From: Planctomycetota bacterium
GTDB taxonomy: Bacteria; Planctomycetota; UBA1135; UBA2386
Assembly (NCBI GenBank): GCA_046290465.1
Contig: JBKAGP010000001.1
Span: 5,152,001 to 5,216,000, forward strand
Length of the DNA stretch: 64,000 nucleotides
Direction of reading: 5' to 3'
This document shows, one piece after another, positions 2,525-58,527 of this stretch (its first letter is position 1; the number at the start of each line of letters is the position of its first letter). The notes beneath the pieces were generated by a model. It saw only the letters and a list, made by a program, of their open reading frames with translations. It was not told the DNA's origin and searched no databases. The position numbers and the translations under genes are program-made.

Positions 2525-4384
<1,860 letters not shown>

Positions 4385-27589: not shown

Positions 27590-27598
27590 CGCTGGAAT

Positions 27599-27637
27599 GC
27601 CATTGTGGCAGCTTCTATCGATGGCTGCCATAATGGC
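27599..27637 (+). promoter_or_regulatory. Putative enhancer (UAS) pair upstream of clpB
   Basis: GCCATTGTGGCAG-13 nt-CTGCCATAATGGC inverted pair; a related pair lies upstream of hsp20. Confidence 0.65.
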
Positions 27638-27717
27638 GGTCTCTCGGGCTGGCATCCTGTGCCCCGAGCGATCTGTAAGCGATTGTAATCAAGGGCTTTG
27701 CGGGTTTCGTCCGGGCC

Positions 27718-27733
27718 CGGCACGCCGCTCGCT
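27718..27733 (+). promoter_or_regulatory. Sigma-54 -24/-12 promoter of clpB
   Basis: CGGCACGCCGCTCGCT with GG-N10-GC spacing; IHF-like AATCAAGGGCTTT at 27687-27699. Confidence 0.6.
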
Positions 27734-27768
27734 ATCCATGGGTCGTCGCCAACCAACGGAGGTCGCCC

Positions 27769-30408
<2,640 letters not shown>

Positions 30409-56339: not shown

Positions 56340-56798
56340 CTACTCGGCGCGCACGGTGATCTGCGCCGGCTTCGCCTCGGCCTGCTTGGGCACGGTGACC
56401 GTCAGCACGCCGTTCTTGTAGACCGCCTCGACGCCGTCGTCGGCGGCGTTCTTCGGCAGCTGGATCGCGCGCGAGAACTCGCCGTAGCGGTGCTCGACGC
56501 GGTGCCAGCGGCGCCCGTCGCTCGCCTCGTCGTCCGTCTTGCGGGCGTCCAGGCGGTTCGCCTTGACGGTCAGCGTGCGCTCGTGCAGCTGGACCTGGAT
56601 GTCGGCCTCGGCGACGCCCGGCAGCTCGAACGCCAGCTCGTAGCCGCCGTCGGTCTCGCTGATGTTGGTGCGCGGCATGTTGCCGCGCCGGGCCTCCTGG
56701 CCGTAGAAGTCGGCGAGCGAGTCGCCGAAGACGCGGCCGAACAGGTCGTCGAAGGAGCTACGGGTCTTGGGAAGGGAGCACTGGTTCTTGAGCATCAT
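56340..56798 (-). CDS. Hsp20/alpha-crystallin small heat shock protein
   Basis: ELPGV, HRVEHRYGEFSRAIQLP, AVYKNGVLTVTVPK; GAGAGG SD. Confidence 0.93.
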   Translation of the reverse strand: MMLKNQCSLPKTRSSFDDLFGRVFGDSLADFYGQEARRGNMPRTNISETDGGYELAFELPGVAEADIQVQLHERTLTVKANRLDARKTDDEASDGRRWHRVEHRYGEFSRAIQLPKNAADDGVEAVYKNGVLTVTVPKQAEAKPAQITVRAE

Positions 56799-56927: not shown

Positions 56928-56956
56928 GTCAGTTTGGCAGTGGCTGCCAGAATGGC
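56928..56956 (-). promoter_or_regulatory. Putative enhancer (UAS) pair upstream of hsp20
   Basis: Minus strand GCCATTCTGGCAG-cca-CTGCCAAACTGAC, about 80 bp upstream of -24, as for clpB. Confidence 0.6.
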
Positions 56957-58527
56957 TACGCCGACGGGAACCGCTTCCACACCCGCTTGCGGTCGAGCCG
57001 CTCGACGGCGTCGGCAGCCACCGCGCGCGTGACCGTCGCCGCGACCGCGTGCACTGCCGAAAGCCCGCCGAGGGCCGCCGCCGTCCAGGCGCCGTCCGTG
57101 CTGTCGGCCGACGCCGCGTGCACCCAGCCGAGCAGCCGTTCACAGGCGACCTCGTGGTCGCAGACGACGCCGAGTCGCTGCTGCACGCGGGCGACCGCTC
57201 GCAGCGACTTGCGGTAGTCCATGCCCGGCAGGTCGGCGAACTGCTCGGCCAGGTAGCGCGTGCGCTTGGCGGTCAGGCGCAGCCGGTGCAGCGGTTCGGT
57301 GGGCAGCTCCGCGGGGATCGCCGCGACCTGCTTGCGCAGGTTCGCGACTTCGCGGGCCAGCAGGGCCGGCGCCGCCTGGGCCATCGGTTCGGCCGCGAGC
57401 GGCGCGCGCTCGTCGATCGCGGCGGCGTCGCGTTCGAACTGGTCGTTCGCCGTGAGTCGTTCCGGGCTGCGCAGCCAGGCCTGCATCTGCGCATGCGCGG
57501 CGGCGCGCTGTCGGTGCACCCAGTCGAGCGTGCGGCTGCCGGCCGGCTGCAGCTGCGGCGGCAGCGCCTCGAGTTCGGCGGGCAGCCGTTCGAGCATCAC
57601 GTCGAGGTCGCGCACCGTGCCGAGCCGTCGGCCGGTCTCACCGAGGTGGCAGAGCAGGCGGCTGGCGACCTCCTCCGGCCACAGGGCGCGGAACGCGCGG
57701 GCGAGGCTGCGCATGCGGCGGATCGTGACCCGCATCTGGTGCAGGTCCTCCGGATCGGAGCCCTCGCGCACACCGATCTCGTAGCGGCGCATCGTCGCGA
57801 GCCCGCCGCGCAGCTGTTCGACGACGGCCTGGCCGGCCGGCTGGTTGCCGCGTTCGCGCTTGGTTTGCTTCTTCGCCTGGCGATGCGGCGCCGCGTCGGG
57901 GTGTTCGATGCCGAGCAGGGCCGCCGCGTGGGTCGGCTTGTCGTCGGTCGCGAACTCGATCGGCAGCCGCTCGCGCAGCTCGTGGGCGATGCGTTCGTTG
58001 GTGGGGACGTCGTCGATCACCTCGAGTTCGACCTCCTGGAACGTCGCGCTGCGGCCGTTGGCCAGCGCCTCGACCGAGTCGATCGCCAGCTCGCAGAGGT
58101 CGGCGCCGCCCTCGGTCAGCACGCGGATCTCGCGCTGCACCTCGAGCCGCTGGCGCGGGCGCAGCGTGCGGTCGAGCACGAACGGCTGCACCACGTCGCG
58201 CAGTTCGTCCGGGAGTTCGGCGGCGCTGCGTGGCAGCTCCTCGCGGTGCCACGTCGCTTCGACCTCGCGTCGCACGTGCATAGTGCCCTCGAGCCTGCCG
58301 CGCGTCTTGCAGGTCAGCCGCCGCCCCTTGCGGCCCTCGCGCAGCCGCAGGCCGATGCTGTTGCGGTGCAGGGACCCGAACTCGTCGTCGAGGTAGGTGT
58401 CCGAGTGGTGCAGGCTCTCGCTCAGGCGGCAGGCGACGCCGAGCTCACGCAGCGCGGCGTCGACCGCGGCGACCTCGATGGCCTGGCGTGCGCGCAGCTT
58501 GAACTCGGACTCGGTGCTGTCGGCCAT
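56956..58527 (-). CDS. CYTH + CHAD domain protein (polyphosphate-associated)
   Basis: ESEFK, DTYLDD, LRLR, EVELE (CYTH); EDLHQMRVTIRRMRS, LHRLRLTAKRTRY (CHAD). Confidence 0.92.
   Translation of the reverse strand: MADSTESEFKLRARQAIEVAAVDAALRELGVACRLSESLHHSDTYLDDEFGSLHRNSIGLRLREGRKGRRLTCKTRGRLEGTMHVRREVEATWHREELPRSAAELPDELRDVVQPFVLDRTLRPRQRLEVQREIRVLTEGGADLCELAIDSVEALANGRSATFQEVELEVIDDVPTNERIAHELRERLPIEFATDDKPTHAAALLGIEHPDAAPHRQAKKQTKRERGNQPAGQAVVEQLRGGLATMRRYEIGVREGSDPEDLHQMRVTIRRMRSLARAFRALWPEEVASRLLCHLGETGRRLGTVRDLDVMLERLPAELEALPPQLQPAGSRTLDWVHRQRAAAHAQMQAWLRSPERLTANDQFERDAAAIDERAPLAAEPMAQAAPALLAREVANLRKQVAAIPAELPTEPLHRLRLTAKRTRYLAEQFADLPGMDYRKSLRAVARVQQRLGVVCDHEVACERLLGWVHAASADSTDGAWTAAALGGLSAVHAVAATVTRAVAADAVERLDRKRVWKRFPSA

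Follow-up and report, generated by a model that had tools for sequence, protein, structure and literature searches.

We find that clpB and hsp20 in the window (the whole stretch of 64,000 nucleotides analyzed here) very probably belong, as judged from their upstream sequences, to an enhancer-type sigma-54 chaperone regulon, whose activator dyad is a 15-bp palindrome, CTGYCA-N3-TGRCAG. The co-regulation of the sHsp-ClpB pair suggested in an initial annotation of this DNA is upheld, and the regulon is larger, additionally taking in dnaK and both groESL operons. The complete model that we favor, and regard as probable, is a five-operon sigma-54 regulon served by one bEBP, with a sensor-less kinase and a receiver-only shut-off.

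Sigma-54 and heat-shock machinery of the genome

The genome (G000) is one contig of 6.59 Mb with 70% G+C, for which 5018 genes were called with a simple coding model that misses some low-GC genes. The initial annotation had made its reading contingent on the presence of rpoN, of which there are two paralogs (G000:C1:1164519 and 6172362), along with 24 full-length bEBPs among 31 PF00158 matches and four IHF/HU genes. HrcA was found neither in this genome nor in any of 121 Planctomycetota genomes (control genomes: 7 of 14 positive). No CIRCE element had been seen at clpB or hsp20, and there is none genome-wide with up to three mismatches to the consensus; four HAIR-like sites occur in the genome at two mismatches, none of them at the five chaperone promoters.

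Two dyads upstream of clpB and hsp20

The strings and positions originally reported upstream of both genes are all correct. Upstream of clpB these are GCCATTGTGGCAG-N13-CTGCCATAATGGC (27599-27637), AATCAAGGGCTTT (27687-27699) and CGGCACGCCGCTCGCT (27718-27733); upstream of hsp20, on the minus strand, GCCATTCTGGCAG-N3-CTGCCAAACTGAC (56956-56928) and ATGGCACACCGCTTGCTT (56848-56831). The distance from the end of the pair to the -24 element, estimated at about 80 bp, measures exactly 81 bases in both promoters. What does not survive is the description of a single inverted pair: each arm forms a dyad by itself, which makes two dyad sites per promoter. The features are as follows:

27597..27611, no strand: putative distal activator site of clpB, the 15-bp dyad ATGCCA-TTG-TGGCAG, centred 115 bp before the -24 G; 13.3 bits
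27625..27639, no strand: putative proximal activator site of clpB (CTGCCA-TAA-TGGCGG), centred 87 bp before the -24 G; 17.0 bits
27675..27705, no strand: A+T-richer spacer with the IHF-like 13-mer at 27687-27699; probable bend
27717..27734, plus strand: clpB sigma-54 -24/-12 promoter; GG at 27719-27720, GC at 27731-27732; 12.1 bits; kept in relatives
27758..27762, plus strand: Shine-Dalgarno sequence GGAGG of clpB
27769..30408, plus strand: clpB, 879 aa; TIGR03346 at 1361.9 bits (cut-off 1232.1)
56340..56798, minus strand: hsp20, 152 aa; a single PF00011 match, the only HSP20 gene found in the genome
56831..56848, minus strand: hsp20 sigma-54 -24/-12 promoter, perfect consensus; 19.2 bits
56926..56940, no strand: putative proximal activator site of hsp20, centred 87 bp before the -24 G; 16.9 bits; 18 bp from the distal site
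56944..56958, no strand: putative distal activator site of hsp20, centred 105 bp before the -24 G; 9.6 bits

The two clpB sites lie 28 bp apart. The position of the distal one is kept in four family relatives and its core is unchanged in two close strains, and the proximal one, likewise unchanged in the close strains, keeps its position of 86-87 in five family relatives. The -12 element of clpB is TCGC, with one mismatch to the consensus (12.1 bits versus 19.2 at hsp20), and its transcription start is predicted near 27744. In one close strain, 14 substitutions have accumulated in the 179-bp clpB intergenic region, all of which miss both dyad cores as well as that of the promoter (P 0.025); 30 of 31 differences were visible in this comparison, and 18 of 25 in that with the second strain. 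In the window, GCCANNNTGGCAG has three exact matches, all within the clpB and hsp20 promoters; at one mismatch there are 12 against 6.5 expected, a mild enrichment that was reached by 2 of 100 shuffles. The distal hsp20 site abuts a CYTH-CHAD gene (56956-58527, minus strand), which ends exactly there, its stop codon overlapping the first bases of the dyad.

A probable regulon of five chaperone units

When the genome is scanned with the consensus, dnaK, clpB, hsp20, groEL-groES-groEL-dnaJ-grpE and REC-groES-groEL rank first, with a clear gap below them. The same five head the 499 sigma-54-like sites (35.3, 30.7, 30.3, 26.9 and 26.5 bits) in a scan with a held-out matrix, built from 29 sites in 18 dnaK upstream regions of other genomes, the sites having been chosen with the consensus seen here; ranks six and seven go to one island site (17.1 bits) and then to a score of 11.1. 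Unseeded palindromic Gibbs sampling of 18 dnaK upstream regions across the phylum returned CTGCCA-N3-TGGCAG in its best run (two of eight starts), and an even-width (16) palindrome search of these found only the end of a bEBP gene. With a composite test, which asks for a site of at least 9 bits located 40-185 bp upstream of a promoter of at least 6 bits, six of the 5018 genes pass, five of them being the chaperone units.

The motif scan proposed in the initial annotation thus succeeds at dnaK and groES and fails at lon and htpG: the genes that we take to be lon, htpG, clpP, clpX, clpC, ftsH, hslU and degP, located by short motifs, have neither site nor promoter directly upstream, with the region before lon scoring -2.7 bits for the site and -1.9 bits for the promoter. 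Genome-wide, 351 sites reach 9 bits and 15 reach 15 bits, and 34 promoters reach 17 bits. Two isolated intergenic dyads of about 17 bits (G000:C1:1346508 and 1772193) are not ranked with a sigma-54 site. A site near the bEBP at G000:2979338 was considered for autoregulation and rejected, as it scores just 8.8 bits.

Conservation in relatives and metagenomes

Conservation of palindrome and promoter is seen at clpB in 18 of 28 order relatives (30 of 69 matches taken, one without upstream DNA). At hsp20 the composite is present in 12 of 28 (30 of 50 matches taken, one too short, many paralogs), and at the REC gene leading groESL in 27 of 29 (30 of 32 matches taken). The relatives that fail, 10 of 28 at clpB and 16 of 28 at hsp20, include some operon-internal genes or paralogs; as kin are not independent, none of these counts is a probability. 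A gene-blind metagenome scan with the exact pattern gave 118 listed matches, 72 of which directly precede genes of the chaperone regulon (GroEL 34, Hsp20 15, DnaK 14, ClpB 5, GroES 2, REC gene 2); the others listed comprise 34 without a match to proteins of this genome, six that are too short and six before other genes. The composite also stands before genes that are probably htpX and before a zinc-ribbon gene at the head of groES (metagenome loci L324, L402 and L351), which may be further members elsewhere.

The enrichment at chaperone genes that had been anticipated is accordingly borne out in held-out, relative and gene-blind scans. These bear on the simplest alternative, namely chance similarity in a genome of 70% G+C, for which it could be said that the loose 13-mer is just twofold enriched in the window and that 351 sites of at least 9 bits occur genome-wide. 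The held-out and gene-blind tests refute it, as the ranking, the relatives, the metagenome scan and the close-strain substitutions that spare all three cores (P 0.025) speak against it, and we regard its likelihood as negligible.

Of 80 dnaK loci from many phyla, two of them too short, those with the strict composite number 8 among the 13 planctomycete-titled ones, six elsewhere, including KSB1, Ignavibacteria and Krumholzibacteriia, and none among 12 from Acidobacteriota; under relaxed criteria they are joined by Brocadiaceae, Lentisphaerota, Latescibacterota and Gemmatimonadota. The -12 element of dnaK promoters (G000:C1:366953; L151-L186) is often non-canonical, being TTGA, TTGT or TTGG in 9 of 17, and likewise in Flavobacteria; at hsp20 it is TTGC in 13 of 13, a contrast that may tune basal expression. 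Upstream of dnaK (L096, L111 and L115), Bacteroidota have a TGACA-N3-TGTCA variant of the dyad, which in two Flavobacteria lies about 10 bases from the -24 element; in Gemmatimonadota a planctomycete-type dyad is equally near that element at dnaK.

Promoter geometry and the spacer

Over 77 promoters with 130 sites, the distances of the dyads to the -24 G show a periodicity (R 0.36 at 10.5 bp, with the maximum of 0.43 at 10.9), which is weak (0.16) for clpB promoters alone. The initial annotation had remarked that the inter-site spacings of clpB and hsp20 differ by one helical turn, which holds for these two (28 versus 18 bp) but not for three other promoters here, where they are 33-34 bp. Pair spacings cluster at 18-21, 28-33 and 40-41 bp, and a whole-turn series is weak among them; yet the distances to the promoter are periodic overall.

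As the right half-site matches five of the six bases of the -24 consensus TGGCAC, the half-sites might be read as extra docking sites for sigma-54, with TGGCA as the start of a -24 box. However, TTGC stands at sigma-54 spacing from none of 98 TGGCA half-sites, TGACA/TGTCA variants are common, and the strict dyad with its three-base spacer is kept, which makes such docking extremely unlikely.

The 77 promoters have an A+T fraction of 0.46-0.47 at -21 to -50, versus about 0.34 further upstream, and a bend of the spacer between enhancer and promoter is likely. For the IHF site proposed within it, the 13-mer upstream of clpB is there, with one mismatch to the IHF consensus; however, it is altered in the close strain (27690 C>A, 27694 G>T) and there are few matches elsewhere, with none perfect and eight at one mismatch among the 77 promoters versus 2.7 in shuffled sequences. 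Accordingly, IHF can be named as the bending protein only with much reserve.

The candidate activator and its kinase

From synteny and co-distribution, we are fairly confident that the activator of the regulon would be the product of G000:6384238-6385590, a bEBP of the NtrC type with REC-AAA+-HTH architecture and the helix ERTLYRK. Its GAFTGA motif, Walker A and B motifs, R-finger and phospho-Asp are all intact, and against NCBIfam it stays below cut-off (best 409 bits versus the AtoC cut-off of 714). When 80 dnaK loci were searched with all 24 bEBPs, its orthologs appeared near dnaK in four planctomycete loci, and it has matches at E<1e-100 in 107 of 121 genomes of the phylum (14 candidates per genome scored); the remaining 14 genomes are for that reason not counted as losses. 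In a sample of 40 top-scoring matches with wider regions, one per genome, the activator gene is the immediate upstream neighbor of dnaK in 18, with the composite present between the two genes in 17 of these; it lies away from dnaK in the other 22 and in this genome. Its own operon has no dyad upstream.

Just before the activator gene is one for a kinase of 247 aa (G000:6383498-6384241), with HisKA and HATPase_c domains only, a neighbor that is adjacent in 30 of the 40 orthologs. Of 20 such kinases that could be measured, 18 have a methionine 17-85 residues ahead of the histidine, and at least four have a hydrophobic membrane anchor.

The recognition helix ERTL[YF]R[KR] is shared by 39 of the 40 orthologs, and among the 24 bEBPs encoded here the candidate alone has it. 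A whole-length ortholog search beyond the phylum was uninformative, with best matches at 37-45% in 23 of 24 genomes, and an HTH profile was used instead. This recovered the same helix in bEBPs, mostly receiver-less, of KSB1, Ignavibacteria, Bacteroidota, Fidelibacterota, Krumholzibacteriia and Gemmatimonadota, and no best match to the ERTLYRK helix in NC10, Rokubacteria, Acidobacteriota or Desulfobacterota. All six non-planctomycete-titled genomes with the composite at dnaK encode an ERTLYRK-type helix; four FCB-type genomes have the helix without a strict composite there. In a quick tree of 74 AAA cores, with the HTH excluded, 24 of 44 planctomycete orthologs used and moderate support, the ERTLYRK proteins of Planctomycetota (94) group with those of FCB-type phyla (97), at 89 with Lentisphaerae/Opitutae included, and the other 23 bEBPs of this genome fall outside this clade.

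One could still suppose that the sites and the regulon are real but that another of the 24 bEBPs binds, the dnaK-linked pair having some other job. The window itself encodes a REC-AAA-HTH bEBP with GSFTGA (2525-4384, plus strand), whose helix and clade differ from those of the favored activator and which would be an example of such a rival. This alternative draws on the sheer number of 24 candidates, and on the location of the favored gene 6 Mb from dnaK here, in a neighborhood with sua5 and a PTS-like gene that is separately conserved in 16 of 45 loci. However, no other bEBP of this genome has a best match adjoining dnaK in the 80 loci, the remaining 23 are outside the ERTLYRK clade, and a phylum-wide site needs an equally conserved recognition helix, for which the ERTLYRK helix qualifies. 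We therefore consider a different bEBP unlikely and retain the product of G000:6384238-6385590 as the candidate.

A receiver-only protein and the proposed mechanism

A receiver-only response regulator (G000:C1:3708791-3709234; L005:4792-5235) leads groES-groEL in 29 of 30 order loci and keeps the acidic pocket, Asp, Ser and Lys. In a crude comparison of 53 REC segments, its alpha-1 is the closest to that of the activator, by a one-point lead (12 versus 11). Because of its operon position and this lead we speculate that it may be a phosphate sink giving negative feedback.

In the mechanism that we propose, five units (dnaK; clpB; hsp20; groEL-groES-groEL-dnaJ-grpE; REC-groES-groEL) would be transcribed by sigma-54 RNA polymerase. 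Stress would lead to autophosphorylation of the kinase and thereby to phosphorylation of the activator, whose dimers would bind at one dyad or two (CTGYCA-N3-TGRCAG), some 40-170 bp upstream, and oligomerise. As in the NtrC-type enhancer mechanism, the activator would then loop to the promoter over the A+T-richer spacer, and ATP hydrolysis would open the five sigma-54 promoters. Since the kinase is without a sensor domain, the stress signal must come via a partner or via the kinase's own folding state; as a first guess, drawn by analogy, misfolding may be sensed through titration of chaperones. Finally, the receiver-only protein made from the groES-groEL promoter would probably drain phosphate, shutting the response off. 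What the analysis shows directly are the sites, the promoters, their conservation, the gene architecture and the synteny; the bEBP that binds, heat induction in this organism, the signal and the feedback are the parts of this scheme that we infer.

Relationship to known systems

The known designs for heat-shock control are sigma-32, HrcA/HspR and CtsR, and a sensor-less kinase driving the core chaperones would be a fourth beside them. HrcA/CIRCE, HspR/HAIR and sigma-32 control the same chaperone targets; in contrast to these, control here is proposed to be positive and ATP-dependent. NtrB-NtrC, AtoS-AtoC and ZraS-ZraR share with the present system the REC-AAA+-HTH architecture, tandem dyads about 100 bp upstream and a -24/-12 promoter, but differ from it in dyad, targets and input. 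For the Planctomycetota, which are without HrcA (0 of 121), a site, an activator-kinase pair and a candidate feedback protein can now be named, all of them testable in culturable members of the phylum.

A PSSM survey (PMC12316311) has predicted sigma-54 promoters for chaperone genes in Planctomycetota and in Bacteroidota. As here, its main text has groEL, groES, ibpA, grpE, dnaJ, dnaK and Clp ATPases, with enrichment in Planctomycetota; unlike here, it offers promoter prediction only, leaves the cognate activator unnamed in the text available and lists Lon, a nonmember in this genome. The terms 'UAS' and 'upstream activat' are absent from that main text. In Flavobacterium psychrophilum, promoters of groES, lon, dnaK, grpE, htpG and clpB with mapped starts have been ascribed to sigma-54 (motif SM4), which needs a bEBP, with the activator and site left unassigned in the text available (PMC9723704). 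The Bacteroidota thus resemble the present system in having core chaperones under sigma-54, as far as that text goes, and a bEBP whose recognition helix is the same and which falls together with the planctomycete protein in the tree; they differ in that this bEBP is without a receiver domain, lon and htpG are members there, and the dnaK dyad of Flavobacteria is TGACA-N3-TGTCA, unlike that of planctomycetes.

In Rhodopirellula baltica, clpB, groEL, dnaJ, grpE, hsp20 and dnaK are heat-induced, with no regulator known for them in the available text of a study that detected no sigma factor under regulation and put forward another cascade (PMC2754498). The initial annotation had drawn an analogy to HsfA of Myxococcus xanthus, where HsfB and HsfA are a kinase and an NtrC-like response regulator activating a heat-shock gene (PMC9109919). 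The analogy is weak, since kinase architecture and regulon differ: in the portion of that source at hand, HsfB is a hybrid REC-kinase, whereas the kinase here is without REC or sensor, and the HsfA targets are lonD, pilus and secondary-metabolite genes, whereas lon is outside the regulon here. The available text on the sigma-54 regulome of Desulfovibrio has nothing on clpB, dnaK or hsp20 (PMC4641369). In the literature searched, mostly open papers without supplements, we found no report of the dyad or the activator, and the supplements of PMC12316311 and PMC9723704 may bear on this. Relative to what is in print, as far as those sources go, the activator site and the activator-kinase pair appear to be new, the sigma-54 chaperone promoters having already been predicted.

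The dyad in a CBASS island and in phages

The island site that ranks sixth belongs to a CBASS operon (G000:C1:1621037-1623115; L004:9038-11116) with a cyclase (CD-NTase), an E2 and a 1TM effector according to PADLOC, which lies in an island of lower G+C, with tRNA-Met and a serine recombinase as neighbors. Upstream of it are dyads at G000:1621037 and 1621068 (17.1 and 12.5 bits; centres at -71 and -40) and a promoter of 17.4 bits. Although this is a single instance, its occurrence by chance is unlikely because only 15 sites of at least 15 bits and 34 promoters of at least 17 bits exist genome-wide. Conservation of this promoter was not seen: the cyclase was found in 1 of 401 genomes of the phylum and none was confirmed in metagenomes, and the upstream DNA gave only 21-48 base matches in 151 genomes. 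Plasmid relatives are mostly actinobacterial.

Among viruses, the composite pattern occurs at 26 loci in six groups, none of them before a chaperone gene. Three of these groups have a single composite each, which may be chance; in the other three, five records of large phages contain 20, 6, 12, 20 and 51 perfect dyads, with 0 in a reversed control. In G552, a complete genome of 159 kb, all 20 lie in 137.5-151.0 kb, next to the terminase. The phage dyads (G552:C1:137526-150992; G556; G553:C1:95214-100625, L490-L495) are set among small genes. Within pairs the distance is 29 bp in 14 of 15 cases in G552 and 32 of 34 in G556, which resembles clpB here, and the base frequencies of 108 phage sites follow those of 93 held-out host sites but are stricter, both sets having been picked with the same matrix. 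We found a phage-encoded bEBP in 0 of 5, sigma-54 in 0 of 5 and a matching HTH in 0 of 12, mostly fragments. G552 encodes a volactin-like protein (L485:6566-7564; actin-like, PF25216) with homologs in 8 of 14 Planctomycetota and in none of 20 other genomes; since they are confined to Planctomycetota among the 34 genomes searched, this hints at probable planctomycete hosts. The terminase was of no use as a host clue, as it matched only distant Bacillus-type phages (about 26%).

Downstream of the phage dyad units there are sigma-70-type promoters in 12 of 15 cases in G552, 14 of 32 in G556 and 0 of 5 in G553, against a background of 0.15-0.19, and sigma-54 boxes in 1, 10 and 3 cases, respectively. 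These sigma-70-type promoters speak against simple activation. They also lend themselves to the view that some separate protein, a repressor or an architectural one, uses the dyads as operators and that the genes are activated from other places or by an activator in solution, as does the presence in some Gemmatimonadota and Flavobacteria of a related dyad about 20 bp from the -24 element of dnaK. However, the sites of Planctomycetota, at 40-170 bp upstream and with a periodicity of about 10.5-11 bp (R 0.36, 130 sites), are placed as enhancers are; moreover, a bEBP is required at sigma-54 promoters, and the 18 dnaK regions yielded no further conserved upstream motif. We accordingly hold the operator reading to be very unlikely for the chaperone genes and prefer that of enhancer sites.

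For the phage dyads we can only speculate about recruitment, titration or an unrelated phage protein. It is conceivable, though we put it forward tentatively, that an ancient ERTLYRK family with its dyad is the chaperone switch of Planctomycetota, receiver-less in FCB-type phyla, whose activator phages recruit or soak up and to which CBASS has been tied. If true, this would link anti-phage defence in the form of CBASS to the chaperone signal, and phages would exploit the host's activator for proteotoxic stress through up to 51 perfect copies of its site ahead of their small early genes; phage early programmes and a CBASS system may thus read the folding-stress signal of the host, with the candidate activator also being the candidate binder of the twin palindromes of phages. 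Within the sigma-70-type promoters of the phages, GCCGATA recurs between the -35 and -10 elements.
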